Shown: positions 1 to 56,802 of the stretch, piece by piece
Numbering within the stretch: the first letter of the stretch is position 1
How the letters are laid out: every line of letters starts with the position of its first letter
The notes under the pieces: generated by a model
What the model was told of the DNA's origin: nothing
The model's input: only the letters and a program-made list of their open reading frames with translations
The model's database searches: none
Position numbers and translations under genes: made by a program
Assembly (NCBI GenBank): GCA_965216315.1
Contig: CBDCFN010000016.1
Location: 928,001 to 992,000, forward strand
Origin: a bacterium
GTDB taxonomy: Bacteria > UBA10199 > 2-02-FULL-50-16 > JAJFLM01
DNA length: 64,000 nucleotides
Reading direction: 5' to 3'

Positions 1-2
1 CT

Positions 3-1451
3 CTATTCAATTTTACCTTTGGCAACGACGGGGCCCCTATCACGGGCGATGCCTACCGCGCCTTGCTGTTTACCTTGCCGGCTGTAGCCGGCTTAACCGG
101 CGCGACGTTGCGTATTCCCAACTCATTCATGATTGCGATCAGCGGTGGCCGTAACGTCAAGTTTATGACGACGATCTTGTTGATTATTCCCGCGGTTGCG
201 GCGGGCTTTGCTCTCCAGAATCCGAATACGCCGTTCTTTACGTTTATCCTGTTGGCGGCGCTCTCCGGCGTTGGGGGTGGGGCGTTTGCCTCCTCCATGT
301 CCAATATCTCTTTCTTCTTCCCGAAACGCATGCAAGGTCTTTCGTTAGGGTTGAATGCCGGGCTCGGGAATGCCGGGGTCAGTGTCATGCAGTTCCTGAT
401 TCCTTGGGCGATCACCTTCGGGATGTTCGGTGCGATTGGCGGTGAACCCTATGTCTTTGGGGCAAACAATACTCAGCTCTGGGTGCAGAATGCAGCGCTC
501 GTCTGGGTGCCTCCCATGAGCGTGCTGGCTATATTGGCTTTCCTTTTTATGAACAATCTCCCGCAGCATAAGTGCGGGTCGACACCTATTGCGATTGCGA
601 AATACTTATGGCTGACGATACTGGGCTTCGGTGGGGCTGCGATCGGTATCACCCTCTTGTTGATTGATTGGGGTGCCTTCCCGGTTCTCTTGAAAATCTT
701 CGTCGTGCTCGTCATTGCGGTTATTGCAACCTTGTTGTTCATGCGCAACTTGACGCCGAAGGAGACTAAGGAAAACCTGAAAGGGCAGTTCGCGATCTTC
801 CGCAACAAGCATAACTGGATCATGACCTGGCTCTATACAATGACTTTTGGTTCGTTCATTGGTTATGCGAACGCCTTTCCCAAGCTTATTGATGACGTCT
901 TTGGCGTGATTCGAGTGGATGCTTCAGGTAATCCCTTGGCGGAAGCCATAATGAACCCTAATGCGCCTATCTCGTCCAAGTACATTTGGATCGGCGCCGG
1001 TGTCGGTGCGCTGATTCGGCCGCTCGGTGGTTGGCTGTCGGATAAACTCGGCGGTGCGCGGGTGACCTTCTGGGATACCTGGATCATGATCGGTGCAACG
1101 ATTGGGGCAGGATACTTTGTTGCCTTAGCCAACCAATCGCCGACGCCGGAGCAGTTTTTTATTCCTTTTCTGCTATTGTTTATCCTCTTGTTTGCGACGA
1201 CGGGCGTCGGGAATGGATCTACTTTCCGCATGATCCCGATTATTTTCTCGAAAGAGCAGGCGGGGCCTGTCCTCGGATGGACTTCGGCCATTGCCGCCTA
1301 CGGGGCTTTTTTGATTCCGAAAATCTTTGGCACGCAAATCAAGGCGGGGACGCCTGAGTATGCGCTTTATGGATTTGCGGCCTACTATGCGACGTGCATC
1401 GTTGCGTGCTGGTATTGGTATAGCCGTAAGAATGCGGAAATTAAGTGCTAG
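3..1451 (+). CDS. narK: Nitrate/nitrite MFS transporter (NarK2-like), 5' end lies before the window
   Basis: Frame is open from position 3. Multi-TM MFS protein with nitrate-signature regions (TLRIP, GGGAFASSMSNISFFFPK, GLNAGLGNAG, LIRP, GVGNGSTF). Confidence 0.92.
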   Translation, partial: LFNFTFGNDGAPITGDAYRALLFTLPAVAGLTGATLRIPNSFMIAISGGRNVKFMTTILLIIPAVAAGFALQNPNTPFFTFILLAALSGVGGGAFASSMSNISFFFPKRMQGLSLGLNAGLGNAGVSVMQFLIPWAITFGMFGAIGGEPYVFGANNTQLWVQNAALVWVPPMSVLAILAFLFMNNLPQHKCGSTPIAIAKYLWLTILGFGGAAIGITLLLIDWGAFPVLLKIFVVLVIAVIATLLFMRNLTPKETKENLKGQFAIFRNKHNWIMTWLYTMTFGSFIGYANAFPKLIDDVFGVIRVDASGNPLAEAIMNPNAPISSKYIWIGAGVGALIRPLGGWLSDKLGGARVTFWDTWIMIGATIGAGYFVALANQSPTPEQFFIPFLLLFILLFATTGVGNGSTFRMIPIIFSKEQAGPVLGWTSAIAAYGAFLIPKIFGTQIKAGTPEYALYGFAAYYATCIVACWYWYSRKNAEIKC

Positions 1452-1469
1452 TTTGTTGGAGACTATGGG

Positions 1470-2060
1470 ATGGAGCGTTTACGGCCTAAATTCATTACAC
1501 TTGCAGTCATTGTCGCTGTAGTCGTGTTGCTGAGTGTCTTGATAAAAGAATGGTATCGGATCGGGATTAACCAAGGGTATGAGCCCGATCAGCCGATTGA
1601 CTATTCACATAAAATTCATGCGGGCGATCATAAAATAGCCTGTTTGTATTGTCACTTTGGCGCGGAAAAGAGCCGTCATGCCGGGATTCCTCCGACGCAG
1701 GTCTGCATGAATTGCCATAGTGTCATTAAGAAAGATTCGCCGGAGATCGCCAAGATAAAAAAAGCGCTCGCGGAAAAGAAGCCGATTGAGTGGGTGAAGG
1801 TCCACAATTTACCAGATTATGTTTACTTTAATCATAAGCAACATGTGAAGGGCGGTGTTTCCTGTCAAGACTGCCATGGCGCCGTGGAGACAATGTCGCG
1901 GGTCAGACAAGTCGAGCCTTTGACGATGGGCTGGTGCATTGAGTGTCATCGCGAAAAAGGTATTACGCCGCCAGAAGGACATTTTACGGAGATGAAGAAA
2001 GGGACAGTAGAGGCCGGTTTCCGCTTTGGTGGAATGGACTGTGCTAAATGTCATTATTAA
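1470..2060 (+). CDS. actA: Alternative complex III pentaheme cytochrome c subunit
   Basis: N-terminal TM helix, QGYEPDQPIDYSHKIHAG and five CxxCH motifs (CLYCH, CMNCH, CQDCH, CIECH, CAKCH); LPDYVYFNH motif. Confidence 0.92.
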   Translation: MERLRPKFITLAVIVAVVVLLSVLIKEWYRIGINQGYEPDQPIDYSHKIHAGDHKIACLYCHFGAEKSRHAGIPPTQVCMNCHSVIKKDSPEIAKIKKALAEKKPIEWVKVHNLPDYVYFNHKQHVKGGVSCQDCHGAVETMSRVRQVEPLTMGWCIECHREKGITPPEGHFTEMKKGTVEAGFRFGGMDCAKCHY

Positions 2061-2064
2061 GCCA

Positions 2065-5010
2065 ATGAAACGAGACGAAACAAAAAAAACCTATTGGAAG
2101 TCATTAGAGGAGCTGCATCAGGATCCGGAGTTTCTCGAACAATCAAAGGATGAGTTCCCTGAGTCTGCACCGAATCGCCGTGACTTTCTTAAGCTGATGG
2201 GCTTTAGCGTGACGGCGGCGTCTTTGGCCGCCTGTTCCCGGTCACCGGTGTATAAGGCGATCGCATATCTGGATAAGCCCGTCGATACAACGCCGGGCGT
2301 GGCGAATTACTATGCAACGACCTGCGCCGGCTGTGAAGCGGTCTGTGGCTTGTTGGCAAAAACGCGTGATGGTCGGCCTATTAAAATCGAAGGCAATCCC
2401 GAATCTCCGATAAATACAGGGAGTACCTGTGCGACCGGGCAGGCTTCGGTGCTGTCACTCTACGATGGTGCGCGCCTGCAAGGACCGCAGCTAGCTGCGG
2501 CAAAATCAAGTTGGAATTCGATTGATAAGTCGGTGCGCGAGGGTCTTCAAAGTGCTGTCGCGGCGGGAAAGAAAATAGCTTTGCTGACGGGCACGTTGAT
2601 GAGCCCGACGACACGCCAGCTGATAAGTGAGTTTACTGCGCATTATACGAATGCGGAACATATTACTTATGATCCCGTCTCTGTTGATGCGATTTATGCG
2701 GCCAATCAGGAGAATTTTGGTAAGGCCGTTATTCCCAGTTACCTCTTCGATAAGGCCAATGTCATCGTGGGTGTTAACGCTGACTTTCTGAATACTTGGA
2801 TATCACCGGTCGAGTTTACGCAACGATACAGCAAGGGCCGCAAGCTTGGGGATAAGTCAGAGATGTCGCGGCACGTTCAGTTTGAGTCCTATGTTTCGTT
2901 GACGGGGAGTAATGCCGACCAAAGGGTTGGTATCCAGCCATCGCAACAGGGTTTGGTGCTCTGGGGGTTGCTTGCCGAGATAGCCCGCCTTGCCGGTGGT
3001 GCCTCCGTTCCAACTCCGGATCTGAGTGGTTTGGATGCAGCATTTATTAAGAAAACCGCCCATGAATTGTGGAAGAGTCGCGGCGAGTCTTTAGTGGTGT
3101 CCGGGAGTAATGACGTGGCTCATCAACGTCTTTGCAACGCTATCAATGCGCAATTAGGCAATGTTGGCAGGACGATTGACTTAGATAATCCAATTCGTCG
3201 CAATTCGGGGACTTCTAGGTCGATTCAAGAGCTGGTTGCCGATATGCAGAAAGGGGAGGTTGGCGCGCTTATTATTTATGGTGTCAATCCCGCCTATGAC
3301 TACGCGGAGGCTGAGAAGTTTAAGGAAGGCCTTAAAAAGGTCAAATTATCCGTCTCATTGGATCCTTATCGCACCGAAACGGCGGCGTTAAGTAAGGTGT
3401 TGGCGCCTGATCTTCATTATCTGGAGGCCTGGAATGATGCCGAGGCGAAGGCCAACCTCTTTCACTTAACGCAGCCGACAATAGCGCCGCTCTATAATAC
3501 GCGTGCGGCTCAAGACAGTCTCTTGAAGTGGATGGGAAAGAATACGGATTATTATCATTATCTTAAGGACGCTTGGAAAAGTAAGATTTTTTCGCAGCAA
3601 TCGCGTTTTGCTAGCTTTAAGTCTTTTTGGGATCGCGCCCTGCATGATGGCGGAGTGGCCTTTCCTGCACAGACCCCGAGGCACCATGCCTTTTCGGGCA
3701 ATGTCAGTTCATCCATAGCGCAGGTGAAAGGGCAGCAGGGCAAGGGAGGTTATGAGCTTTATCTTTATGAAAAGGTGGGCGTACGAGATGGCCGCCACGC
3801 AAATAATCCCTGGCTTCAAGAGCTGCCGGATCCCGTTAGCAAAGTGACCTGGGATAATTATGCAAACATGGCGCCTGAGGAAGCGAGCCGTCTGGGTCTG
3901 AAACAGGGAGATATGATTCGACTCAGTGTGGGCAATCGCAAAATCAAATTGCCGGTCTATCTGCAGCCCGGACATCCGGTCAAAACAATTTCTGCGGCCC
4001 TTGGTTACGGGCGCAAGCAGGCGGGGAAGGTTGGGAATAATGTCGGTGGCAACCTCTATCCTTTTGTGACACTAACGAAAGAGTCTTTTATTTATCATTC
4101 AGGCGGGTTGGATGTCAGTAAGTCCACTGGACGGCACAAATTAGCTGTCACGCAAACACACAATTCGATGGAAGGTCGGCCGATTATCAAGGAAACGACA
4201 CTTCCGGCCTATCAGGCGAATCCAAAGTCCGGTAACGAAGACAAAGTTCATTTAGTATCGTTGTGGCCTGAGCATAAATACACTGGGCAGCGCTGGGGGA
4301 TGGCGATCGATTTGAATGCCTGTACGGGGTGTTCGAGTTGTGTGGTTAGCTGTCAGGCGGAGAATAATGTTCCGGTCGTTGGGCAAGACGAAGTCTACCG
4401 GCGTCGCGAGATGCATTGGATAAGGATTGATAGGTACTATAGTGGCACTGAAGAGAATCCCGATGTCGCCCATCAGCCAATGATGTGCCAGCATTGTGCG
4501 AATGCTCCTTGCGAAACGGTCTGTCCGGTGCTTGCCACCGTTCACAGCTCGGATGGGCTGAATCAGCAGGTTTATAATCGCTGTGTGGGGACCCGCTATT
4601 GCGCCAATAACTGTCCGTACAAAGTTAGACGCTTCAATTGGTTTAACTATGCGGACAACGACAAGTTTGATTACAACATGAATAGTGAGATCGGTAAGAT
4701 GGTTCTCAATCCCGATATTGTCGTTCGGTCACGCGGCGTGATGGAGAAATGCTCCATGTGTATCCAACGTATCCAGGAAGGGAAGTTGAAGGCACGGGAT
4801 GAGGGTAGGAAGGTGAAAGACGGGGATATCCAGATGGCATGCCAGCAGTCCTGTCCGTCAGATGCTATTGTATTTGGCGACTTGAGCGATCCTAAAAGTC
4901 GCATTTCGAAGCTTGTTAAAAATGATCGTTATTATCGCGTCTTAGAAGAGCTGAATGTACAACCCGTTGTGGGTTATCTGACGAAAGTTAGGAATATTGA
5001 GAAGGGTTAA
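2065..5010 (+). CDS. actB: Alternative complex III subunit B (molybdopterin-oxidoreductase-like domain fused to a 4Fe-4S ferredoxin domain)
   Basis: YWKSLEEL N-terminus, Tat motif RRDFLK, lipobox LAAC, NNPWLQELPDP, and C-terminal Cys clusters (CTGCSSC, CQHC..PCE.VCP, CVGTRYC..NCPY, EKCSMC). ATG 2065 chosen after the actA stop. Confidence 0.93.
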   Translation: MKRDETKKTYWKSLEELHQDPEFLEQSKDEFPESAPNRRDFLKLMGFSVTAASLAACSRSPVYKAIAYLDKPVDTTPGVANYYATTCAGCEAVCGLLAKTRDGRPIKIEGNPESPINTGSTCATGQASVLSLYDGARLQGPQLAAAKSSWNSIDKSVREGLQSAVAAGKKIALLTGTLMSPTTRQLISEFTAHYTNAEHITYDPVSVDAIYAANQENFGKAVIPSYLFDKANVIVGVNADFLNTWISPVEFTQRYSKGRKLGDKSEMSRHVQFESYVSLTGSNADQRVGIQPSQQGLVLWGLLAEIARLAGGASVPTPDLSGLDAAFIKKTAHELWKSRGESLVVSGSNDVAHQRLCNAINAQLGNVGRTIDLDNPIRRNSGTSRSIQELVADMQKGEVGALIIYGVNPAYDYAEAEKFKEGLKKVKLSVSLDPYRTETAALSKVLAPDLHYLEAWNDAEAKANLFHLTQPTIAPLYNTRAAQDSLLKWMGKNTDYYHYLKDAWKSKIFSQQSRFASFKSFWDRALHDGGVAFPAQTPRHHAFSGNVSSSIAQVKGQQGKGGYELYLYEKVGVRDGRHANNPWLQELPDPVSKVTWDNYANMAPEEASRLGLKQGDMIRLSVGNRKIKLPVYLQPGHPVKTISAALGYGRKQAGKVGNNVGGNLYPFVTLTKESFIYHSGGLDVSKSTGRHKLAVTQTHNSMEGRPIIKETTLPAYQANPKSGNEDKVHLVSLWPEHKYTGQRWGMAIDLNACTGCSSCVVSCQAENNVPVVGQDEVYRRREMHWIRIDRYYSGTEENPDVAHQPMMCQHCANAPCETVCPVLATVHSSDGLNQQVYNRCVGTRYCANNCPYKVRRFNWFNYADNDKFDYNMNSEIGKMVLNPDIVVRSRGVMEKCSMCIQRIQEGKLKARDEGRKVKDGDIQMACQQSCPSDAIVFGDLSDPKSRISKLVKNDRYYRVLEELNVQPVVGYLTKVRNIEKG

Positions 5011-6408
5011 GTGATGATATCAGCCGCTGAAAATGAGAGGCCATCAGCTAACGTTGTGCGCGGAGTCAGCAAACTCCGCCAGATTACCGCGGAAGTCTTA
5101 CGTCCATTGGAGACGCGCCCGGGAGCGGCTTGGTGGCTGACCTTTGCGGTCGCGTGCTCGGCCTTAGGAGTGGGGGCCGTAATGATCGCCTATCAGATTG
5201 CCGTTGGTATCGGCGTTTGGGGGCTCAATAAAACGATTGGCTGGGCCTTTGACATCACTAACTTCGTGTTCTGGATTGGTATTGGTCATGCCGGAACCCT
5301 GATTTCGGCTATTCTACTATTATTTAGACAGCGTTGGCGTAATTCGATTAATAGAGCTGCCGAGGCCATGACGATTTTTGCCGTGATGTGCGCCGGTATC
5401 TTTCCCGTCATTCATATGGGACGTCCATGGCTCGCCTATTGGGTCTTTCCCTATCCAAACACGCGTGGTTCGCTGTGGGTCAATTTTCGCTCACCGCTGT
5501 TATGGGATGTCGTCGCGATTAGCACCTATTTCACGATCTCTTTTGTTTTCTGGTATATCGGAATGATCCCCGACCTAGCCTTGATGCGTGATCGGGCTAA
5601 AGCCGGGATCAAGAAGAAGCTCTGCGCCCTATTTAGCATGGGTTGGAATGGTTCACAACGTACCTGGGCACGTTATGAGATGCTCTGTTTGATCTTGGCC
5701 GGTTTGGCCGCGCCGCTTGTAGTCTCGGTTCATACCATTGTGAGTATGGACTTTGCCACGTCCGTTATTCCTGGGTGGCACACGACTATTTTTCCGCCAT
5801 ATTTCGTCGTTGGGGCGGTTTTCTCCGGCTTCGGGATGGTCATGACGCTGATGATCATCACCAGAAAGGTGATGAACTGGGAAAAATACATTACTTTGCA
5901 ACATCTCCAGGCGATGGCCAAGGTTCTGCTTGTAACGGGTTCGATAGTCGGATTTGCGTACTTAACCGAGTTTTTTATGGCTTGGTATAGTGGTAACCAA
6001 TTTGAGCTATTTACCTTTGTTAATCGCGCAACCGGGCCTTATTGGTGGGCCTACTGGATCATGATGAGCTCAAACTTGATTGCGCCCCAGCTTTTTTGGT
6101 TTAGGAAGGTTCGCAACAGCGTTCCGATGATGTTCTTCCTCTCTATCATCGTTAATATCGGGATGTGGTTTGAGCGTTTCGTAATCATCGTAACCTCGCT
6201 TCATCGAGATTACCTGCCGTCGAGTTGGGCGATGTATACGCCGACTGTGATTGAGGTTGGCACGTTGATCGGGAGCTTCGGACTCTTCTTTACCGCGTAT
6301 CTACTTTTTATTCGCGTGCTGCCGGCGATTGCAATCAATGAGGTGAAAGCGATTACCAAGCTGGACACTGATTCGAGTGATTCGGAGGAGGCTGTGTCTC
6401 ATGGTTAA
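5011..6408 (+). CDS. actC: Alternative complex III subunit C (NrfD/PsrC-family quinol-binding membrane protein)
   Basis: [62 protein letters not shown] motifs. Confidence 0.95.
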
Positions 6409-6922
6409 ACGCTATGTCATAGGGTTCTTTGAATCGGACAAGACCATACTTAAGGCTGTTCGGATGCTGAAAAAAGAGGGCGTGAAGATTTATGATGCCT
6501 ATACGCCTTATGCGGTCCATGGACTGGATGAAGCCATGGGGTTGAGACGATCACGCTTAGGAATTGTGACATTTTTTGCCGGGGCGATCGGTTGTGCAAT
6601 TGCGCTTCTATTTCAGGTCTGGACCTCTGCCTTTGACTGGCCGGTGAATGTTGGAGGGAAGCCGGGTAACTCGTGGCCCGCATTTATACCGGTGACATTT
6701 GAATTAACCGTGTTGATAGGGGGCTTGGTGACCGTTGCGGCGTTCTTTATGCGGTCAAAGTTATTGTGGGGGAATAAAATTCATCTTCCGATTGAAGGGG
6801 TGACTGATGATGCCTTTGCTTTAATTCTCGATAATACGGATGGGGGCATTGATATAAGTGCTGCGGAGAGACGCATGCAAGAGCTTGGTGCGACGAAAGT
6901 GATGGAACAGGTGTTGATGTGA
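6401..6922 (+). CDS. actD: Alternative complex III subunit D (DUF3341)
   Basis: [40 protein letters not shown] 6401 follows GGAGGAG and overlaps the actC end. Confidence 0.93.
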
Positions 6923-7536
6923 AGCGTTATACCTTAAAAATCTGTGTTGTGAGCCTGTTAGGTCTGACCCTGTTGGCGTGTGAGCGAGACCATCGTAAGC
7001 CTGCTTTTATGTTTTTCCCGGAAATGGTGGAATCGGTTCCCTATGATAGTTTCGCCCCGAATGCCAACCATAAGGACGGTAAGACGTTGCAGCGTCCTGT
7101 TAAGGGGACAGTCCCTCGAGGATTTCTGCCTTATCCTTTTCCGGAGGACCGAGAGCGGGCTGCCAAAGAGCTCAAGAACATCCTGCCGAATACCAAGGCT
7201 GTTGTGGCGCGTGGCCAGCATTACTATGAGGCCTTTTGTCTTCCGTGTCACGGAGTGATGGGTAAAGGGGATGGGCCGCTGATTCCTAAGTATCCGAATC
7301 CGCCTTCATTTACGGCCAAGAGTATGCGTCATATGCCGGAGGGAGAGATCTATCACGTCATTACAATGGGATCCGGGCAGATGGCGCCCTATGCTACTCA
7401 AATTGACCCCGAGGATCGCTGGGCAATTGTTCGTTATGTACAAGTATTGCAGAAAGCAGGGAGGCCGACCGGACAGCCTGAGGCGCAAGAAGAAGTGAAG
7501 GCTTCTCCTCAAGAAGTCATTGAAGGAGGATTATAA
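6919..7536 (+). CDS. actE: Alternative complex III subunit E (monoheme cytochrome c lipoprotein)
   Basis: Lipobox LLAC, PVKGTVPRG, one CLPCH, distal Met in GQMAPY, DRWAIV. Confidence 0.92.
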   Translation: MKRYTLKICVVSLLGLTLLACERDHRKPAFMFFPEMVESVPYDSFAPNANHKDGKTLQRPVKGTVPRGFLPYPFPEDRERAAKELKNILPNTKAVVARGQHYYEAFCLPCHGVMGKGDGPLIPKYPNPPSFTAKSMRHMPEGEIYHVITMGSGQMAPYATQIDPEDRWAIVRYVQVLQKAGRPTGQPEAQEEVKASPQEVIEGGL

Positions 7537-7540
7537 GACG

Positions 7541-8710
7541 ATGAAACCTATTCCGGCATTTAAAATGAAGCCCCGTTACAATTATATCGCTGGGGCGCTG
7601 ATGGCCTTGGGTCTCATCACCATCGCGGTGGCTTTTTATGTCGATCCTGTTCGCGCATGGGCTAACTTGCTGATTGATAATTTTCTTTTCATGTCATTGG
7701 GTCTCGCCGGAGTGTTGATTATCGCACTTGTGAATGTTGCCAAGGGGAGATGGGCAGGTGTGCTTAAAAGGGTTCCGGAAGCCATGATGTCTTGTTTGCC
7801 TTATGCCTTTATTTTGATGCTACCATTAGGATTGGGCCTGCATTCTATTTATCACTGGACTCATGCGGATGTTGTGGCCAATGACACGCTTCTGCAGCAC
7901 AAGGCACCGTATCTGAATGCAACATTCTTCATGATTCGTATGGTCATTTTCTTTGCTATTTGGATTTTTTTCGCAAAGTTCATGCGAAAGCATTCATTGC
8001 GCCAAGACAATGATGCAGACATGGTTCATTATAAAAGGAGTTATAAGGGGTCCGCTGCCTTCATAGTGGTGTTTGCGGTGACATTTTCTTTTGCCAGTTA
8101 TGATTGGCTCATGTCCGTAGAGCCACATTGGTTTAGTACGATATTTTCGCTTTATACTTTTAGCAGTCTCTTTTTACATGGAATTGCCGCGTTGACGTTG
8201 ATTGTAACGTTGCTCTATGAGCGCAATTATTTAGTCGGTTACGTCAATGAAAACCATCTCCATGACTTAGGTAAGTTGCTTTTCGCTTTCAGTACTTTTT
8301 GGGCTTACATCTGGATTTCACAGTACCTGCTGATTTGGTATTCGAATATTCCCGAGGAGACGACTTATTTTGTGCTTCGTAAGGATGAGGATTGGAACTG
8401 GCTCTTCTGGCTTAACCTCGGGATTAATTGGGTGGTGCCTTTCCTTGTATTGATGCCACGTGCGGCCAAAAGAAACGCTGCCTTGCTGAAACGCGTATCC
8501 ATTACCTTGCTTATCGGCTACTGGCTTGATCTTTTCTTGCGAGTGGCTCCCAACGTGCTTTTGGAAAGGAAAATCGGACTGATTGAGATTTTCATGGCGT
8601 TGGGGTTTGTGGGGCTCTTTTTCTGGGTGACAGGGCGTGCCCTGGGCAAGGCGCCATTAATCGCTCGCAATGATCCTTATTTACAAGAGAGCTTAAATCT
8701 GCATCAATAG
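7541..8710 (+). CDS. actF: Alternative complex III subunit F
   Basis: Polytopic membrane protein with DWLMSVEPHWFSTIF, HLHDLGKLLFAF, QYLLIWYSNIPEET. Confidence 0.93.
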   Translation: MKPIPAFKMKPRYNYIAGALMALGLITIAVAFYVDPVRAWANLLIDNFLFMSLGLAGVLIIALVNVAKGRWAGVLKRVPEAMMSCLPYAFILMLPLGLGLHSIYHWTHADVVANDTLLQHKAPYLNATFFMIRMVIFFAIWIFFAKFMRKHSLRQDNDADMVHYKRSYKGSAAFIVVFAVTFSFASYDWLMSVEPHWFSTIFSLYTFSSLFLHGIAALTLIVTLLYERNYLVGYVNENHLHDLGKLLFAFSTFWAYIWISQYLLIWYSNIPEETTYFVLRKDEDWNWLFWLNLGINWVVPFLVLMPRAAKRNAALLKRVSITLLIGYWLDLFLRVAPNVLLERKIGLIEIFMALGFVGLFFWVTGRALGKAPLIARNDPYLQESLNLHQ

Positions 8711-8717
8711 GGCCATT

Positions 8718-9371
8718 ATGAAAGATGACCCGATCAAGCGCTTTGTTGAACATGATTTGCCCGTGGCTGGCATGCCGCTCTCTCCGATGGAACCACCTGA
8801 GGCCACCGCACCTCCGTCGATTGAAGCCGTTGAATATGCCGACCTAAAAGGGCCGCTCAAGCAGTTATGGGATGAGCATGAAGACTACCTTAAAGTATTG
8901 GCGGTTTTAGATAATGCACTCATAGCCCTGCGAGAAAATAGTTGGCTGATGACGCCGGAGATTTCGACCGGCATTAAACATTTCTTTCAGTATGTCGATG
9001 AAAGGGCGAGTTCTCATAATAATAAGGAAGAGCGGGCTCTTTTTCCCGTGCTACGTGAAAAGTTGATTGAAGCAGGAGAATGCAGTCCGGGAGAAGATAA
9101 GACGACACCCGTTGATGTCATGGAAGAGGAGCATGATAAAGTAGGTCAGTCGGCTGCAATCATGTTTACGCTTCTTGGGCTTGCGCCTCGCGTCGAGGAT
9201 GAGAAAATTAGGAATATGCTATTTGATCACGCTTGCAACTTGGGACAGGAAATCGTTGAGACGATGAAGCTGCATATCTTTCGCGAAAATAATATAATTT
9301 TCCCATTGGCGCAAAAACTTATTGCGGATGAAGATTGGGACAGTATTCACAAGAAAATGAAGCGGTATTAA
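8718..9371 (+). CDS. Hemerythrin (HHE) domain protein
   Basis: Repeated EH ... HxxxEE..LFP and EH ... HxxxEN..IFP patterns; starts 7 nt after actF. Confidence 0.85.
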   Translation: MKDDPIKRFVEHDLPVAGMPLSPMEPPEATAPPSIEAVEYADLKGPLKQLWDEHEDYLKVLAVLDNALIALRENSWLMTPEISTGIKHFFQYVDERASSHNNKEERALFPVLREKLIEAGECSPGEDKTTPVDVMEEEHDKVGQSAAIMFTLLGLAPRVEDEKIRNMLFDHACNLGQEIVETMKLHIFRENNIIFPLAQKLIADEDWDSIHKKMKRY

Positions 9372-9718
9372 TTTGAACGATCTGACGAAGGTTGGTGAGC
9401 GGCATCTTTGATAGCAGCCTTAGGAATGAAAGTAATCTTACAGTCGGTCGCTGCGGAGCAGGTGCAGCAGAACGGTGTTCCATCTAATATGTGATCGACG
9501 CCAACGAGCTGGCCATCGGAGATGCTGAAAACTTTTTCCTCACTGCATTTGCAGTCACTGCTAGAAAAATCAATCGTACCACTGTGGATGACATAGGCCC
9601 CGTACGGCTGGTGCTCTTCATAAAAGAGCACTTGTCCCGCCTTGTAATGGACAAGTTTGCCATGATCGATCAGTTTTTCTATTTGGGAGGTGACTGCCGT
9701 CAACTCATCATTGGTCAT
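9368..9718 (-). CDS. Stand-alone cyclic-nucleotide-binding (Crp-type sensory) domain protein, Cys-rich
   Basis: YKAGQVLFYEE..YVIHSG beta-barrel signature; no HTH; six Cys. Confidence 0.75.
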   Translation of the reverse strand: MTNDELTAVTSQIEKLIDHGKLVHYKAGQVLFYEEHQPYGAYVIHSGTIDFSSSDCKCSEEKVFSISDGQLVGVDHILDGTPFCCTCSAATDCKITFIPKAAIKDAAHQPSSDRSN

Positions 9719-9790: not shown

Positions 9791-10504
9791 TCAGTATTCA
9801 AGTTGTGCCGTTTCTATCAATGCATCAGCATCGAGTATGGTGATGTCGCGATCTTTGACGGCAATGAGCCCATCTTTTCGAAATTCAGAGAGAAGGCGGA
9901 TGGCCGTCTCTTGGGTGGCCCCAATCATTTCAGCCATTTCTTCTCGCGACAATTGAAGGTCGATAAGGGTCCCATTTTCTTTTTGTTTGCCGTAAGATCT
10001 TTTTAAGAGGAGTAAGAGCTCTGCCATGCGTTCTCGTACGCTATGATGAGCCAAGCTGGTGGCTAAGTCTTCAGCCTTGCCTAATTCGCGAGCTAACTTA
10101 ATTAACATGCCTCGGTTAAGTTCCGGGTTTTGGGAGAGAGTCTCGAAAAAAGTTTTCGTATCGATACAACAGATACGGCAGTCTTCAATTGCTTCGGCCG
10201 TGGCATGATAACATTCCTCGGCGACGAGACAGCGATACCCGAGCAAGTCACCGGGGCCTGCAATGCGCACAATCTGCTGGCGGCCGCTTGCAGATGTCTT
10301 GTAGAGCTTTACGCGGCCCGCATTGATGCAATAGAGGCCGTAGGCCTGATTAGCCTCGTAGAAAATGATCTGACCCTTCTTGTAGTTGTTGACGGTCTTG
10401 TGGGCATCAATCTCCTCAAAATCGCCGGAATGCAGGTGGCAGAAGAGCCCACCGGCGCGACTGGAGCAGCTTTCACACTCGATTCTGGATTTTTTGGCAG
10501 TCAT
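9791..10504 (-). CDS. Crp/Fnr family transcriptional regulator with N-terminal Cys cluster
   Basis: CESC..FC N-terminus, cNMP domain, C-terminal HTH LSREEMAEMIGATQETAIRLLS. Confidence 0.92.
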   Translation of the reverse strand: MTAKKSRIECESCSSRAGGLFCHLHSGDFEEIDAHKTVNNYKKGQIIFYEANQAYGLYCINAGRVKLYKTSASGRQQIVRIAGPGDLLGYRCLVAEECYHATAEAIEDCRICCIDTKTFFETLSQNPELNRGMLIKLARELGKAEDLATSLAHHSVRERMAELLLLLKRSYGKQKENGTLIDLQLSREEMAEMIGATQETAIRLLSEFRKDGLIAVKDRDITILDADALIETAQLEY

Positions 10505-25746: not shown

Positions 25747-25760
25747 TTTAAGGAGTGGGT

Positions 25761-26414
25761 ATGCAGCGAGGACATGGAGTGATGTCGGATCAAGAGACAC
25801 GTGAGCTCATATGCGAGCTATGCCGCGATTTTTATCGGCTCGGTTGGGCGAGCGGAACAGGCGGTGGCATTTCGATTAAACGAAGTGGGCAGATTTATAT
25901 GGCATCGAGTGGCGTCCAAAAAGAGCGCTTGAGTGTCGATGATATTTTTGTCTTGGATGAAGAAGGTGTCATTATGCAGCCGGCGCGGGCAGGTCTCGAG
26001 CTTTCTGAGTGTCACCCCCTCTTTATGAATGCCTATCAGATAAGAGGTGCGGGGGCCGTGTTGCACAGTCATTCCATTAATGCCGTTCTTGTGACTTTGC
26101 TTTATGAGGATGCTTTTAAAGTAACGAATCTTGAGATGATGAAGGGGATCGACGGGGTCGGTGTATTTGATACGCATGAAGTTCCGATTATTCCCAATGC
26201 GGCGCGGGAAGGGGAGCTTTCAGGTGCGATGGCGGCCGCAATGCGCGATTATCCAAAGGCGCAGGCTGTGCTCGTGAAGGGCCATGGGGTCTACGTGTGG
26301 GGTAAAGATTGGGTGCAGGCAAAGACGCAGGCGGAGTGTTATGATTATTTGTTTCAGGCGGCGGTGATGATGAAGCGGCTGGGACTTGATCCTTCATCAG
26401 GAGGTCAGTCATGA
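25761..26414 (+). CDS. mtnB: Methylthioribulose-1-phosphate dehydratase
   Basis: GWASGTGGGISI, SGVQKE, HSHS, GHGVYVWG class II aldolase motifs; start 25761 or 25782. Confidence 0.93.
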   Translation: MQRGHGVMSDQETRELICELCRDFYRLGWASGTGGGISIKRSGQIYMASSGVQKERLSVDDIFVLDEEGVIMQPARAGLELSECHPLFMNAYQIRGAGAVLHSHSINAVLVTLLYEDAFKVTNLEMMKGIDGVGVFDTHEVPIIPNAAREGELSGAMAAAMRDYPKAQAVLVKGHGVYVWGKDWVQAKTQAECYDYLFQAAVMMKRLGLDPSSGGQS

Positions 26415-26848
26415 AAATCAGTTGGCTGAGTGATGGTAGCGAAGTGATATCCGATGAACTGAAGAAAGTCGGTATTGTTGCGGACTGGATTGATCCTAAT
26501 CTGGGCGTGTATTTGGACGTGATAGAAGGCTGGAAGCAAAAACGCGATTATGCGGCCCATGACGAAGTGAAACTAACTTCTGATACACCTAATTTGGCAA
26601 CAATACTAGATAATTTCAAGCGGGAGCATCGGCATACGGATGATGAAGCCCGCTATATTGTCTCCGGTGCCGGCATTTTTGATATTCGTTCGGCTGATGA
26701 TCGGTGGATAAGGGTTGAGGTCGAGTCAGGAGACTTTGTCATCGTTCCCGCAAATGTGTATCATCGTTTTAAATTAACAGCTAGCCAGCAGATCCATGCG
26801 GTAAGGCTTTTTAAAGAAAATCCGTCTTGGCAAGCGATATTTCGATGA
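26411..26848 (+). CDS. mtnD: Acireductone dioxygenase
   Basis: EHRHTDDEAR...HRF cupin metal ligands; ATGA overlap with mtnB. Confidence 0.9.
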   Translation: MKISWLSDGSEVISDELKKVGIVADWIDPNLGVYLDVIEGWKQKRDYAAHDEVKLTSDTPNLATILDNFKREHRHTDDEARYIVSGAGIFDIRSADDRWIRVEVESGDFVIVPANVYHRFKLTASQQIHAVRLFKENPSWQAIFR

Positions 26849-43851: not shown

Positions 43852-44814
43852 GTGGCTACCATTAAGAAATACCTGTGGGTGGCCCACCTCTTTGCGATCG
43901 CGGTCTGTGCGTATTTTGTCGCCCAGACGGTCACGACCTATTTATCGATGTTTCTCGTGGAGGAGACGGGGCGAACGGCGACAGCACGGCCTAAGAGCCC
44001 TGAAGAAAGTCGCATTCTACTGGGGCAGGTAAGTGGGTATGACCCGGTAATCGAACGGAATGTCTTTAATTCGGCAAAAATTCCCGTCAACGTGGAATTG
44101 CCAAAGGAGGACATAAAAAAGACAGCTGTCGATCTTGAGGGACCAGCTGTAAAAACTTCTTTGAATATTAAGGTGTTAGGGACTTTAGTCGTTGATGGGG
44201 GCAAGGATAGGCGTTCCTCGGCGACGATCGTAGGCGGAAAAAGCCGCAAACCCGGTGTTTATTTTGTACTCGGGGACGAGGTCTTTGAGGATGGCGTTGA
44301 GCTCGTCCGGGTCAAAAAACATCGCATCGAGTTTACGAATAAAGGGCGGCTTGAATATGCCATGCTCGAGGGGATTTCGGAGGATATCACCCTCTTTGCC
44401 CGTGCAGAGGATGTGCATGGCAAGTCAGATGGCAAGAAGCATCCGAGTAAGAGGAAAACGCCGAAAAGCCGGGAGAGCGCACCGAAGGCCTCAGGCGATA
44501 AACATTTTGTAATCGACCAGCGCGAAGTGGATGAAGCGCTGGCCAATTTAGATCGCTTATATACCGAAGTCAGGATTGTTCCTAACTTCAGAGATGGGCA
44601 GCCGGCCGGGATGAAAATTCTAGCGGTTAAGCCGGGCAGTATTTTTAGTAAGTTGGGACTGCGCAGGGGTGACGTATTGGAAAGAATCAATGGGATGGAA
44701 TTAGACATCAAACGGGGCATGGAGCTGTTTGCTCAACTGAGGGATCAGAAAAACCTCAAGATCGACCTCGTTCGTCGTGGCAAAAACGAAACGCTAGAAT
44801 ATGAAATCAAATAA
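43852..44814 (+). CDS. gspC: Type II secretion protein C (with PDZ domain)
   Basis: N-terminal TM, IERNVFNS, PDZ-like LGLRRGDVLERING; first gene of the operon. Confidence 0.88.
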   Translation: MATIKKYLWVAHLFAIAVCAYFVAQTVTTYLSMFLVEETGRTATARPKSPEESRILLGQVSGYDPVIERNVFNSAKIPVNVELPKEDIKKTAVDLEGPAVKTSLNIKVLGTLVVDGGKDRRSSATIVGGKSRKPGVYFVLGDEVFEDGVELVRVKKHRIEFTNKGRLEYAMLEGISEDITLFARAEDVHGKSDGKKHPSKRKTPKSRESAPKASGDKHFVIDQREVDEALANLDRLYTEVRIVPNFRDGQPAGMKILAVKPGSIFSKLGLRRGDVLERINGMELDIKRGMELFAQLRDQKNLKIDLVRRGKNETLEYEIK

Positions 44815-47767
44815 ATTTTACTTTAGTGTACTGACAGGATTGTTGAGCCTGCTGCTTCAGATTAACTTAATCTCGGCAGCGGAATTGACACCCAATGTAA
44901 CGAATCCTGCGCAAAAGACACCACCGGAGGCGGGATCTGATGTCGGTGGTATCAAGGTTCCGCCAGCGGTTCCGCTGGATAAATTATCTTCACCAAGTAA
45001 GGCGCCAAGTGTGGCGGCTAAGAAAAGCGGTGAAACCCCGGCGGTAAAGACAACGACTCCACCGCCTGCCCCCAAACCGGTAGAGAAGGCGGAGAGGCAA
45101 ACCATTAAGGCCTCCGGCCAAGCGGCGGGTGCCACAACAGATGAGGGTGGGACGACGACCGCAACAACGCCACAGCCAGCACCATCCGCTGAAACCGCCG
45201 AGAAAGCGGTGGCGGCTCCGGATACGGCTCCTTTAGAAAAACTCGTTGGAAGCATTGAAGATGAAGGGGGGCCTGCTGGTAGTGCGACCTCGACCGTATC
45301 GCAACCCTTGCGCGCGGCGGATGAGAAGACGGTCGAAACCGCCGAGAAAAAGCGCGAAGAAGAAGGCGTCTTCTTTAACGTTGCCGGTGAGGATATACGA
45401 GAAATTATTAAGCAAATTAGCCGGGTGACGGGGACGAATTTTATCTTAGATGACAAAATCCGCGGTGAAGTCACCATTATCAGCGAAAAGAAAATGACCA
45501 AAGAAGAGGTCTATGAGGCCTTCTTGTCGGCCTTGGATGTCGCGGGCTATACGACCGTTCCCGGACCGGCGGGTTTGACTAAGATTGTTAAAAAACGGGA
45601 TGCCCTTACGCGGCCGATCCCTATTTACACCGACAAAACGCCCTACACCGATAAGTTTATCACTCGATTGGTCACGCTGAAAAATATCAGTGCCATCGAT
45701 ATGGCGAATGCCATTAAGGGCCTGGTTTCTAAAGAAGGGAATCTGTTTGCGTATCCGGCGACAAATACCCTGATTATTACGGATACAGGGACCAATATTG
45801 AGCGGATTGTGCGCATGGTGCAGGAATTGGATACGGAGGGTCCACAAGAAGTCCTCGAAATCATTCATATCGAATACGCCGATGTCAAAGACATGGCGGA
45901 TAAGATTTCCAAGCTTTTTGGCGGGACTCAACAGACCACGTCTCGCCGGACGAGCCGACGACGTGGCAAAGCGGCAACGCAGACTCAAGAAGCCCTGCCG
46001 ACCGTCAATAAGATTATTTCGGATGAGCGGACGAACTCGCTGATCGTGTTGGCTTCCAAAATTACGATTGCCAAGGTTAAAGATATTATTCGGCGCCTCG
46101 ATCGTCCCCTGATAGGTCCGGAAGAAGGCGATATCCACGTCTTGTATCTTAAAAATGCAAAAGCGAGTGAGATGGCGGAAGTTTTAACCGGCGTGACTCA
46201 GGCGGCCAAGAAGGCCAAGCAAGAGACTAAAAAGACGACGACGAGAGCTAAGCGGCCAAGTGTCCCGCAGGCGGAATTTGAAGGTCTGTTTGGGAGTATT
46301 AAGTCCATCAAAGCGGATGATAATACGAATTCACTGATAGTCCAGGCGAACGCCAAAGACTTTCGCCTCTTGGTGGACCGTATTATTGCCAAGCTCGATA
46401 TCCCCAGGCGTCAGGTTTATATCGAAGCTAACATCATGGAGATCGGTTTAAGGCAGGGGCGAGAGCTGGGAACCGGTATTCTTGGGGGGAAAACGTTTAG
46501 TGTCGGTGGGAATGAATTGGCACTCTTCGGAAATACCTTTCCGTTTATTCCGGACATAACTTCAACTTCTGGAGTGGGAGGCGCAACGACTCAGAACCCG
46601 ATTTCACTAACGCCGCCGTTCTCGGATAATCCGATTAATTTCCCCAAGTTTTTCGCCGCATTTATTGCCCAGTCCGATGAAGCCGAGCTGAATATCCTGT
46701 CGTCACCCAATATCCTCACGCTGGACAACACGGAAGCTCGCATCAAGGTCGGTGATACGATTCCATTCTTGACCGGGAGCGCTTTAACGACGGGAGGCGT
46801 GCAAACGTCCAATATTCAACGTGAAGATGTCGCTCTTGAGCTGAAGGTGAAGCCACAGATAACGGAAGGTGACAACGTTCGTCTGGAAATAAAACAGAAG
46901 ATAGAAGATTTTAGTGAAGCTTCCAATCCGCTTGAGGCGACCGCAGGGCCTGCAACCAGTATTCGTGAGATCGAATCGGAGATTGTTGTGCCCGATAAAC
47001 GGACGATAGTCTTGGGTGGTCTGATGCAAGATAGGGAGTCGTCTAGAAAAACGAAGATCCCACTGCTGGGCGATATTCCTATCCTTGGTTACTTATTTAA
47101 AGGGACCTCGCATTCGAAGACTAAAATTAATTTGCTCATCTTTCTGACGCCGACGATTATCCGCGAGCCCGGTGATTTTCTTGCCGTGTTGAAACAGCGT
47201 ATCGAGCAAAGAAATCGCTTTATTGATGATCATTTTGGAGAGCGGGCACGTAAGAGAATACGCGGGACCATCGAACGACATAATACGGCGCTATTGAACT
47301 TTCAAACGGCGACTTCGCCTTTGAGTGAACCTGGCATATTGCCAACGGATCCTCTCGTGGGCTCTCCGGAGCTGCAGATGGATGCTGGCGATGCGGCACC
47401 GCCGAGTTCCGACCTGAGTATCGATGGGGAACTGACCGCGCTTCCGCCGGCAGCAGAAGCCGGTTACGATGAAGAGCCAACTACAAGTCGTCGCCAGGTG
47501 CAAAAGGGCAGGCGTTCGAAGTTGAAAAAAGGGCGCGTATCGAGATCCGGTCCGGATACGTCAGTCCAGCAACCCTCACCGCCACCGCCGGCGCCGCCGG
47601 CCCCTCGGATTGCTACGGAGCCTCCGGTGACGAATGGTGTCTCCAACGGGGCTGCCTCCTCACCGCCGCCGACCGCCGCTCCCACGCCGCCACCCCCGGC
47701 ACCTCAGCAGGAAGCGGCGGCTCCCAACGGCTCAGGCATGCCCAATGATATAGATCTTGCCTTCTAG
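44801..47767 (+). CDS. gspD: Type II secretion secretin
   Basis: N0-N3 domains (TGTNFILD, DERTNSLIV), RRQVYIEA, SSPNILTLDN, VLGGLM, KIPLLGDIPILGYLF. Confidence 0.95.
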   Translation: MKSNKFYFSVLTGLLSLLLQINLISAAELTPNVTNPAQKTPPEAGSDVGGIKVPPAVPLDKLSSPSKAPSVAAKKSGETPAVKTTTPPPAPKPVEKAERQTIKASGQAAGATTDEGGTTTATTPQPAPSAETAEKAVAAPDTAPLEKLVGSIEDEGGPAGSATSTVSQPLRAADEKTVETAEKKREEEGVFFNVAGEDIREIIKQISRVTGTNFILDDKIRGEVTIISEKKMTKEEVYEAFLSALDVAGYTTVPGPAGLTKIVKKRDALTRPIPIYTDKTPYTDKFITRLVTLKNISAIDMANAIKGLVSKEGNLFAYPATNTLIITDTGTNIERIVRMVQELDTEGPQEVLEIIHIEYADVKDMADKISKLFGGTQQTTSRRTSRRRGKAATQTQEALPTVNKIISDERTNSLIVLASKITIAKVKDIIRRLDRPLIGPEEGDIHVLYLKNAKASEMAEVLTGVTQAAKKAKQETKKTTTRAKRPSVPQAEFEGLFGSIKSIKADDNTNSLIVQANAKDFRLLVDRIIAKLDIPRRQVYIEANIMEIGLRQGRELGTGILGGKTFSVGGNELALFGNTFPFIPDITSTSGVGGATTQNPISLTPPFSDNPINFPKFFAAFIAQSDEAELNILSSPNILTLDNTEARIKVGDTIPFLTGSALTTGGVQTSNIQREDVALELKVKPQITEGDNVRLEIKQKIEDFSEASNPLEATAGPATSIREIESEIVVPDKRTIVLGGLMQDRESSRKTKIPLLGDIPILGYLFKGTSHSKTKINLLIFLTPTIIREPGDFLAVLKQRIEQRNRFIDDHFGERARKRIRGTIERHNTALLNFQTATSPLSEPGILPTDPLVGSPELQMDAGDAAPPSSDLSIDGELTALPPAAEAGYDEEPTTSRRQVQKGRRSKLKKGRVSRSGPDTSVQQPSPPPPAPPAPRIATEPPVTNGVSNGAASSPPPTAAPTPPPPAPQQEAAAPNGSGMPNDIDLAF

Positions 47768-47815
47768 CGTTGATGCAATAAACTGAATGATCCAGAGCAG
47801 TTACGGCGTATTCAA

Positions 47816-47844
47816 TTGTCGGCATTGCGCGGATCTGTTATACT
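47816..47844 (+). promoter_or_regulatory. Possible internal sigma70 promoter before gspE
   Basis: TTGTCG-N17-TATACT with an extended -10 TG. Confidence 0.5.
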
Positions 47845-47871
47845 GGCCGATGGTGTGCAGAGGGCATAATA

Positions 47872-49602: not shown

Positions 49603-49637
49603 CTTGGGTCTATCAGTCACTGATATAATTCATTTAT

Positions 49638-50867: not shown

Positions 50868-50907
50868 AAGGTTTGGGTGTAATTATTAAATACGGAGGTA
50901 AGTAAGC

Positions 50908-51357
50908 ATGAAGCACCGAAGCACTAAAAGAGAATTGGGTATGACCCTGATCGAAATTATGGTCGTGGTCACAATTCTGGGAATTCTCGCGACCATTGTA
51001 ACCGTCAATGTTCTCGATCGTCTGGATCAAGCCAAGGTAAGTGCCGCGGTGACGCAGATGAAAAATCTTGAGGGTGCACTTGATGAGTTCAGGCGAGATA
51101 ACGGGTTTTATCCATCGACCGAGCAGGGTTTGAAATCCTTGATTGAGAAACCGACTGTCGGTCGTGAGGCAAAACGTTATCCCCGCAATGGTTATCTTAA
51201 AGGGAACGAGGTTCCACGTGATCCCTGGGACTGTGACTTTATTTATAATAGTCCTGGTCTTCAAGGGAACCCTTACGAAATCACTTCGCTGGGCTCTGAT
51301 TGCGCCGAGGGGGGTGAGGATGCCGATGCCGACATCAAGAGCTGGGAGTCTCAGTAA
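50908..51357 (+). CDS. gspG: Major pseudopilin
   Basis: G|MTLIEIMVV, YPSTEQGL, DPW, SLGSD. Confidence 0.95.
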   Translation: MKHRSTKRELGMTLIEIMVVVTILGILATIVTVNVLDRLDQAKVSAAVTQMKNLEGALDEFRRDNGFYPSTEQGLKSLIEKPTVGREAKRYPRNGYLKGNEVPRDPWDCDFIYNSPGLQGNPYEITSLGSDCAEGGEDADADIKSWESQ

Positions 51358-54585: not shown

Positions 54586-54588
54586 TAT

Positions 54589-56801: not shown

Positions 56802-56802
56802 G

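Follow-up and report, generated by a model that had tools for sequence, protein, structure and literature searches.

We analyzed a 64,000-nucleotide (nt) stretch of bacterial DNA, hereafter the window (G000:C16:928001-992000, where G000 denotes the source genome, 98.3% complete), and found that it opens inside a gene array joining a respiratory nitrate reductase (Nar) to an alternative complex III (ACIII). Open reading frames (ORFs) and family profile searches place narK2, actABCDEF, and a hemerythrin gene in the first 9.4 kb of the window, all on the + strand (Table 1). Because the window start cuts narK2 and nar genes adjoin upstream, this segment is the 3′ half of an operon. A search of the 20 kb upstream (L001) located narC, narGHJI, and narK1 on the same strand in the 10 kb before the window. 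The whole array, reported as 15 genes over ~18.7 kb, reads narC-narG-narH-narJ-narI-narK1-narK2-actA-actB-actC-actD-actE-actF-hemerythrin, with 45 nt as the largest gap between its same-strand genes, and is presumably cotranscribed. The nar-ACIII array is real, conserved, and widespread across several bacterial phyla. As to its function, we assign a probability of roughly 0.45 to the reading that its ACIII is a dedicated enzyme, a specialized paralogue and not a general complex III, which would pass menaquinol electrons via NarC and NarI to nitrate.

Conservation and gene content of the nar-ACIII array

We sampled the phylum with 93 species genomes, all of one class, and called narG at E <= 1e-30. 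ActD was found in 37/93 genomes and narG in 19/93. Nine of the 93, representing five families, carry narG and ActD on the same contig and strand with ActD 10–11 kb after narG, and the DNA fetched from these genomes confirmed the order narC-narGHJI-narK(s)-actABCDEF-hemerythrin in all nine. Two more arrays are ended by contig edges (G057 inside actC, G024 in narK2), and fragments in G039 are consistent with the array. Counted over the phylum, the array is present in at least 10/93 genomes. The Fnr-cNMP gene pair that adjoins the array in the window also stands beside the nar array in at least six other genomes of the phylum, and molybdenum cofactor (Moco) genes are near in most. The other, non-nar ACIII loci of the phylum (n = 31) have COX1 within 12 kb in 23 cases, are truncated in 7, and have neither nar nor cox in 1; the usual order at the oxidase-linked loci is actABCDEF-SCO-COX2-COX1-COX3-cytochrome c. 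One single-contig genome (G055:C1:688000-703000; L110/L111) has narG, narH, actB, fnr, moaA, and moaCB each in two pieces and an internal stop in narC, which could reflect operon decay or assembly indel errors.

Outside the phylum, we inspected the best 80 of at least 591 ActC relatives. Sixteen of these loci show narH/narI ahead of actA and on its strand (with narG where the flank reaches), 32 have COX1 nearby, 8 have neither, and 24 have a flank too short to tell. The 16 nar-linked loci belong to metagenome-assembled genomes (MAGs) labelled Myxococcota, Planctomycetota, Acidobacteriota, Bacteroidota, Ignavibacteriota, and Candidatus Zhuqueibacter, and narC directly precedes narG in 5/5 of those checked. 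In 23/26 nar-linked loci, actA is projected to lie no more than ~30 nt from the last nar gene. In a sample of 301 Acidobacteriota species genomes, ActD is present in 201 (a tally that includes three genomes flagged unpublished, which enter no other claim made here) and narG in 26. The DNA around every narG showed narC-narGHJI-(narK)-actABCDEF in 22/26, and the other 4 end at contig edges. At least two ActD were found in 18/22 of these carriers among the matches listed (150 of 251), so that, within those matches, the nar-linked ACIII is an extra copy in Acidobacteriota carriers.

Judged by sequence, the six act genes make up a complete ACIII, with a predicted menaquinol:cytochrome c activity. 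In a PDB search, ActA, ActB, ActE, and ActF match solved ACIII chains at 1e-25 to 1e-215. ActA is a pentaheme, membrane-anchored protein with five CxxCH and no CxxCK. ActB combines a TIGR04519 TAT-variant signal, a PF04879 Molybdop_Fe4S4 domain, a four-cluster Fer4 ferredoxin domain, and a lipobox Cys, and the Cys columns of its B2 part are all conserved in 100/100 aligned ActB. ActC and ActF supply the two NrfD-like membrane subunits, and ActD (PF11821) and a monoheme ActE complete the set. ActB further has a four-Cys FS0-like motif (Cys 103, 106, 110, and 138, counted from the ORF start) that is absent from 6btm_B and 6lod_B. We considered this motif as a mark of nar-linked ACIII, which is only partly true: it occurs in 23/25 nar-linked ActB and is lost in 23/23 oxidase-linked ActB of the Bacteroidota-type clade, but it is also kept in 16/24 oxidase-linked ActB of the other clade, and is therefore ancestral, not nar-specific.

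The upstream half encodes a Nar of canonical composition. NarG scores 1538.2 bits on TIGR01580 (cut-off 1084), NarH 685.8 bits against a cut-off of 524, NarI 130.7 bits on TIGR00351 (cut-off 105.55), and NarJ 50.9 bits, just below its cut-off of 59.35. The four heme-ligand His of NarI are all kept, and an Arg is aligned with E. coli Lys86, which we take to be a quinol-site residue. NarK1 is 595 amino acids (aa) long, and the array encodes two NarK transporters. The preliminary description of this DNA had proposed an ACIII dedicated to anaerobic nitrate respiration, partnered by a NarGH/Nxr-type enzyme lacking NarI or by a nitrite or nitric oxide (NO) reductase encoded upstream. The tie between ACIII and nitrate respiration is supported, with a conserved narK/nar adjacency, an ActC apart from the oxidase-linked ACIII of the phylum, and no oxidase beside it. 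Both partners had to be given up: narI is present, above cut-off and with its heme His, and no nitrite or NO reductase was found within 20 kb upstream of the window. A twin-arginine translocation (Tat) signal on NarG, also named there as a feature to look for, has no room, since the alignment to the narG model begins at residue 11.

NarC and the lineages of ActC and NarH

NarC, the fourth subunit of this Thermus-type Nar and the product of the first gene of the operon, is a 307-aa ORF that shares 4 nt with the start of narG. Its signal peptide, two CxxCH, and C-terminal transmembrane (TM) helix with a basic tail are kept in 14/14 aligned homologues. By description and position it is a periplasmic, membrane-anchored, two-heme cytochrome c of the Thermus type; in Thermus, NarC binds NarI in two-hybrid assays (PMC7694296). 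NarC residues 65–153, its first heme domain, match residues 58–145 of Flavobacterium johnsoniae ActA (6btm_A; E = 7.4e-9, 38.6 bits, the second-best PDB match). According to PMC8552683, the N-terminal part of that ActA is an unresolved, membrane-anchored, mobile domain with a sixth heme, which is proposed to ferry electrons from ACIII over to cytochrome aa3. At 196 aa, the nar-linked ActA is short, and such an N-terminal domain is absent.

The association between NarC-like domains and ACIII is also visible at other loci. At 27 loci, ActA and a NarC-like domain form one protein; 26 of these loci are of the Bacteroidota type, and the other is in G041 of this phylum. Two Acidobacteriota MAG contigs without narGH have the pair directly at an ACIII: in L072:1932-3452 a NarC-like domain and a NarI-like diheme b are fused in a 506-aa ORF directly before actABCDEF, and in L074:3618-5122 separate NarC-like and NarI-like genes precede actABCDEF. 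In the ActC clade to which the nar-linked forms belong, 52/77 rows have a NarC-like partner, compared with 1/35 rows of the other clade. We also noted a 951-aa cytochrome c/Big_5 protein after actF in L074. The ActA of G041 (359-aa ORF, L122:13881-14960) resembles that of Flavobacterium in having a NarC-like cytochrome c domain at its N-terminus, and the ACIII is a basal branch of the clade with the nar-linked forms. The contig ends 200 nt upstream, and a narCGHJI of the ACIII-less kind lies on a separate contig.

The ActC tree (112 rows, quick search, LG+G4, no outgroup) has a branch with 96% support in the Shimodaira-Hasegawa-like approximate likelihood ratio test that sets 35 oxidase-linked rows, from the phylum and from other phyla, apart from the nar-linked forms. 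The same branch parts the 22 oxidase-linked or truncated ACIII rows of the phylum from the nar-linked rows. Two changes suffice for nar versus rest on this tree (25 nar and 61 other; 26 rows of unknown context left out), and scoring "nar" against all four labels requires 9 changes, compared with a shuffled mean of 22.8. The nar-linked ActC share their side of the 96% branch with an oxidase-linked clade of Bacteroidota. Monophyly of the nar-linked ActC was not obtained in this outgroup-free quick search, the Bacteroidota oxidase-linked clade nesting beside nar-linked groups. An ActC tree had been suggested in the preliminary description as a way to see whether such forms are a clade; they separate from the oxidase-linked ACIII of the phylum but are not a single clade. 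On the NarH tree (55 rows), ACIII-linked versus ACIII-less (45 vs. 6) requires 2 changes, and the NarH of the phylum are one group (support at least 95%) with the ACIII-less ones nested inside. The NarH pattern is what long joint inheritance, broken by an occasional loss or gain, would leave.

Proposed electron route and rival explanations

We have hypothesized that menaquinol would be oxidized at ActC, with protons released outside, and that the electrons would run through the iron-sulfur clusters of ActB to the hemes of ActA/ActE and on to NarC. NarC would hand them to the two b hemes of NarI, across the membrane, and NarH would deliver them to NarG, with nitrate reduced in the cytoplasm. 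NarC would then play the role that the mobile N-terminal heme domain of Flavobacterium ActA has towards cytochrome aa3. If ACIII pumps protons, more charge would be moved per electron than in the plain NarGHI loop, the pumping by ACIII being added to the scalar charge separation of the Nar loop. PMC7439408 describes ACIII as coupled to proton translocation, and PMC8076601 reports putative ion paths within ActC and ActF. Menaquinone is likely made in G000, since MqnA/D-family genes are present. That the ACIII is dedicated to nitrate respiration we regard as probable; the specific route from ACIII through NarC to NarI, as read from the sequences, is more tentative and falls a little short of even odds. 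We infer the physical association as well as the direction and path of the electrons. NarCGHI and ACIII might form a nitrate-respiring supercomplex, the anaerobic counterpart of ACIII-aa3, in which ACIII would pump protons and raise the energy yield per electron and which would prevail in Acidobacteriota; this proposal we place on the unlikely side.

Several observations weigh against the route through NarC and NarI. NarI looks able to oxidize quinol alone, to judge from its four His and the Arg at the Lys86 position, and ACIII would then not be needed to feed Nar. Operons of the form narC-narGHJI-hemerythrin-narK1-narK2 exist without ACIII in four genomes of the phylum, two of the 22 Acidobacteriota carriers (G130 and G180) also have an ACIII-less narCGHJI, and narC-type nar operons without ACIII are also found in Thermus. 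Because ACIII-less nar operons hold both NarC and hemerythrin, these two are part of nar, with ACIII added to an operon of the narC type. Electron transfer from a c heme to a b heme of NarI, against the membrane potential, may be unfavorable. The likeness between NarC and ActA is modest, and the shared domain could be no more than a widespread kind that accompanies oxidases; an SCO1-fused cytochrome c (2l4d_A, 55.8 bits) is the best PDB match of the NarC domain. In Thermus, NarC is regarded as an exit that passes electrons towards nitrite and NO reductases, and not as an entry (PMC7694296). Furthermore, the caa3/SCO operon of G000 has no ACIII of its own, whereas relatives have actABCDEF-SCO-caa3, and the nar-linked ACIII could also serve oxygen respiration.

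Electrons could also leave ACIII for other destinations. A doubtful alternative is that ACIII, coproduced with Nar, works under anaerobic conditions as a quinol:cytochrome c oxidoreductase and feeds other periplasmic acceptors (nitrite, NO, hydroxylamine, or peroxide reductases), with NarC as a parallel outlet or a structural component and no direct flow from ACIII to Nar. ACIII is known to feed periplasmic acceptors, as is NarC in Thermus (PMC7694296); PMC9270275 cites Refojo 2012 for an ACIII that supplies N2O reduction, and the Caldithrix paper proposes that ACIII feeds epsilon-Hao (PMC5317091). A NirK-like multicopper gene, at 205–224 bits below the cut-off of 296, occurs in 5/12 nar-ACIII carriers of the phylum, in three of them on the same contig as the array (G033:C43:36401-37222, G053:C27:26266-27084, and G039:C255:386-1213). 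G000 itself encodes a MauG/peroxidase-like diheme protein and two tandem octaheme cytochromes resembling HAO/hydrazine dehydrogenase (484 and 494 aa, 75% mutual identity; L014:10258-15916, equal to G000:C16:878258-883916), which lie ~37–40 kb upstream of narC and are the nearest candidate nitrite-handling genes. They are followed by genes for a tetraheme cytochrome (174 aa), a DsrO-like FeS protein, and a DsrP/NrfD-like membrane protein, with a CcsB-type biogenesis gene upstream, and the cluster is a candidate quinol-linked nitrite or hydroxylamine reductase. What speaks against periplasmic acceptors is that none is common to the 12 carriers: NosZ and canonical NirK are each found in 0/12 and HAO-like octaheme cytochromes in 1/12 (G000), and the HAO-like genes of G000 bring their own tetraheme/FeS/NrfD quinol module. 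The idea also leaves unexplained why ACIII sits inside narC-type operons and why NarC-like/NarI-like/ACIII clusters exist without narGH. The genome search of G000 returned no NirK, convincing NirS, NrfA, or NosZ and no cytochrome bd, and since its heme-copper oxidases are only two, both A-type, G000 has no Nor. Within the phylum, octaheme HAO-like proteins are found only in G000 and G084, and every genome with a canonical NirK (at least 354 bits) lacks the array; twice this NirK adjoins an oxidase-linked ACIII (G087 and G002).

It is improbable, in our estimate, that the ACIII is an ordinary complex III for a caa3 oxidase encoded elsewhere, next to nar through shared low-oxygen regulation or history. 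In its favor, ActD has a single match in G000 and neither A-type oxidase there adjoins ACIII, one being a SCO-COX2(cyt c)-COX1-COX3 operon and the other an aa3 with ctaA and ctaB; the same oxidase type directly follows actABCDEF in relatives, as the 23/31 non-nar loci with nearby COX1 indicate. A Rieske-type cytochrome b, however, is encoded in 12/12 nar-ACIII genomes of the phylum, and the further ActD copies in 18/22 Acidobacteriota carriers mean that most of these have another ACIII, among the matches listed; the nar-linked ACIII is thus not the only complex III, which speaks against its being the general one. The fixed gene order and the gap of ~30 nt or smaller recur across phyla, and the nar-linked ActC lineage stands apart from the oxidase-linked ACIII of the phylum. 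G000 has a predicted second quinol-oxidizing complex, a cluster of Rieske, split cytochrome b6-like, and subunit IV-like genes with an 897-aa cytochrome c carrying eight CxxCH (L013:5341-10419; G000:C16:1616341-1621419).

Two further explanations would change the identity of the enzymes. Nar might at times work as a nitrite oxidoreductase of the Nitrobacter kind, electrons leaving via NarI and NarC and ACIII being either reversed (cytochrome c to quinone), in support of reverse electron flow, or oxidase-linked. A very similar gene cluster with a NarC homologue exists in Nitrobacter (PMC7694296), Qrc, an ACIII homologue, reduces quinone from periplasmic cytochromes (PMC8076601), and a Gallionellaceae pangenome reports ACIII genes in all its nitrite-oxidizer genomes (PMC10734462). 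We nevertheless find nitrite oxidation very improbable, because the gene neighborhood points to anaerobic nitrate reduction (a regulator of the Fnr type that carries a Cys cluster, two NarK, Moco genes, and hemerythrins), NarG reaches 1538 bits on the narG equivalog, and the hosts are heterotroph-like lineages, with only a weak RuBisCO-large-subunit family match in G000 (145.6 bits, 406-aa ORF, G000:C16:235833-236594). The matched ORF is probably a RuBisCO-like protein, not a carbon-fixing enzyme; class II aldolase and ARD genes of methionine salvage lie at window positions 25755–26848. That the six act-like genes are instead a new membrane-bound nitrite reductase, as suggested by Suarez et al. 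2023 (PMC10732223) from HHpred results and the nar genes upstream, we find scarcely credible. The FS0-like motif of ActB, absent from the solved Flavobacterium and Roseiflexus ActB, counts in favor of this suggestion, but 16/24 oxidase-linked ActB of the other clade have it too. ActA, ActB, ActE, and ActF match solved ACIII chains, ActD matches PF11821, ActC is 52–73% identical to the ActC of ordinary ACIII, and the five CxxCH of ActA are not accompanied by a CxxCK.

Neighboring genes and comparison with known systems

Positions in the window are collected in Table 1.

Table 1 Genes of the array and its convergent neighbors in the window, numbered from window base 1
Gene and product	Positions	Strand	Matches and features
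narK2, second of two NarK-type nitrate/nitrite major facilitator superfamily transporters	1..1451	+	TIGR00886 242.6 bits (below cut-off 311.7); NarU 236.9 bits
actA, membrane-anchored pentaheme cytochrome c of ACIII	1470..2060	+	five CxxCH, N-terminal TM helix; 6btm_A 1.8e-46, 6f0k_A 1.1e-45
actB, fused B1 molybdopterin-oxidoreductase-like and B2 iron-sulfur parts	2074..5010	+	6btm_B 1.7e-215, 6lod_B 1.1e-207
actC, NrfD-like quinol-binding membrane subunit	5011..6408	+	Pfam NrfD 83.3 bits; 52–73% identity to ActC of 80 loci
actD	6377..6922	+	PF11821 182.6 bits (cut-off 25.7)
actE, monoheme cytochrome c lipoprotein	6919..7536	+	6btm_E 1.4e-25; one CxxCH, LLAC lipobox
actF, second NrfD-like membrane subunit	7520..8710	+	without Pfam match; 6btm_F 2e-68, 6f0k_F 2.9e-67
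hemerythrin-domain protein, last gene of the array	8718..9371	+	PF01814 49 bits
cNMP-binding-domain-only protein, convergent, paired with the Fnr gene	9368..9718	-	PF00027; 4-nt overlap with array end
Crp/Fnr-family regulator	9791..10504	-	Pfam cNMP_binding and HTH_Crp_2; N-terminal Cys cluster C-x2-C-x9-C

The 5′ end of narK2 is cut by the window, and its likely start is an ATG 180 nt before window base 1, 11 nt past the narK1 stop. The actB ORF opens at TTG 2026, and ATG 2074 is its likely start. The junctions measure 18 nt for narK2-actA, 13 nt for actA-actB if ATG 2074 is used, 0 nt for actB-actC, and 7 nt for actF-hemerythrin, and the pairs actC-actD, actD-actE, and actE-actF overlap. No actG, SCO, or heme-copper oxidase gene follows the array in the remaining 54 kb of the window. 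The tight narK-actABCDEF-hemerythrin arrangement noted in the preliminary description, with gaps of 18 nt or less, a convergent cNMP-binding/Fnr pair at its end, and no oxidase after it, is borne out. Scans of the array for sigma-70-like promoters and terminators gave no signal above shuffled expectation, and the count of the FNR box TTGAT-N4-ATCAA in the upstream locus and the window was at shuffled expectation; given such chance-level scans, an internal promoter before actA is neither shown nor excluded. A search for sequencing runs containing window positions 1–9400 listed no RNA data set and four DNA data sets, all from one study. The product of the Crp/Fnr gene scores 99–102 bits on FNR/FnrL models, below the cut-offs of 228–300, and has an N-terminal C-x2-C-x9-C. 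It is probably an oxygen-sensing activator that switches the array on without oxygen.

The hemerythrin gene lies 3′ of actF in 9/9 complete arrays of the phylum. Its product scores 39.2, 38.8, and 22 bits on RIC/YtfE/DnrN models with cut-offs of 204.7, 254, and 300, which does not place it in these families. A role as an ACIII accessory was ruled out, since the gene comes after narI in four ACIII-less nar operons of the phylum; it belongs to the nar part, not the ACIII part, of the array. The divergent genes 5′ of the array are mobA, moaA, moaCB, a TauE-like exporter gene, a second hemerythrin gene, moeA, and moaE. The TauE/SafE-family exporter gene (L001:6990-7742, minus strand), inside this Moco cluster, adjoins moaCB in at least six other nar-ACIII genomes of the phylum, and its substrate might be nitrite or another anion. 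About 7 kb 5′ of narC, beside an unannotated 372-aa ORF, is a bacterial truncated-globin gene (160 aa, L001:3009-3491) that may be part of NO or oxygen handling. Farther along the window, positions 43852–57705 hold a complete set of type II secretion/type IV pilus-like genes (GspC, D, E, F, pseudopilins, K, and PilM-like), preceded by a GAF histidine kinase and a response regulator.

Nar is among the best-studied respiratory enzymes, and its energy yield is taught as that of a simple two-proton redox loop. To our knowledge, the partners described for ACIII so far are oxygen reductases and photosynthetic carriers. The nar-ACIII array is an almost undescribed combination of known machines, with a putative function. 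A conserved narCGHJI-ACIII operon implies that many uncultured bacteria of soil, sediment, and groundwater wire nitrate respiration differently. If ACIII does feed Nar via NarC, current models would underestimate the growth yield of these groups on nitrate, and NarC, whose role in Thermus is undefined, would gain a concrete function. Were the supercomplex to exist, the membrane nitrate reductase of Acidobacteriota would mostly take this form, which would also be common among several further phyla of soil and sediment.

Compared with the oxidase-linked ACIII of F. johnsoniae (6BTM), Rhodothermus marinus (6F0K), and Roseiflexus castenholzii (6LOD), the nar-linked ACIII has all of ActA to ActF in the same order and with strong chain matches, the lipobox Cys of ActB and ActE, and the full Cys set of ActB B2. 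It differs in following narCGHJI-narK, whereas the known kind precedes SCO and a caa3/aa3 oxidase; in its 196-aa ActA without the sixth-heme domain, a homologous domain being supplied by NarC; and in keeping the FS0-like four-Cys motif that the ActB of 6btm and 6lod do not have. Its ActC also lies on a different branch from that of the oxidase-linked ACIII of the phylum. The Thermus thermophilus operon narCGHJIKT is similar in having narC first, narGHJI, two NarK-type transporters, and an adjoining Crp-family regulator, but it has no ACIII and has an Nrc NADH dehydrogenase nearby, whereas here six act genes and a hemerythrin gene are appended (PMC7694296).

In the openly available literature that we searched, only PMC10732223 turned up with nar-ACIII adjacency, without recognizing the ACIII, and the term "nitrate reductase" does not occur in the available text of a review of the NrfD family (PMC8076601). 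The "novel NrfD-containing complex" of Suarez et al. 2023, from Planctomycetota and KSB1 MAGs, is the same six-gene cluster and follows Nar genes in 13 instances (PMC10732223). Its genes are given there as a five-heme cytochrome, an FeS-molybdopterin oxidoreductase fusion, NrfD, actD, "ccoP", and "quinol:cytochrome c oxidoreductase subunit 2", and the cluster is said to match no described complex, the guess being a nitrite reductase or a part of an electron transport chain, not ACIII. NarC, the breadth across phyla, and the separate ActC lineage are what our analysis adds to that account. Thermogutta terrifontis likewise has a complex-III-type enzyme beside narGHI with a suggested role in nitrate respiration (PMC5673643), but the enzyme there is a Rieske/cytochrome bc1 complex and no NarC was found, in contrast to the ACIII and NarC encoded here.

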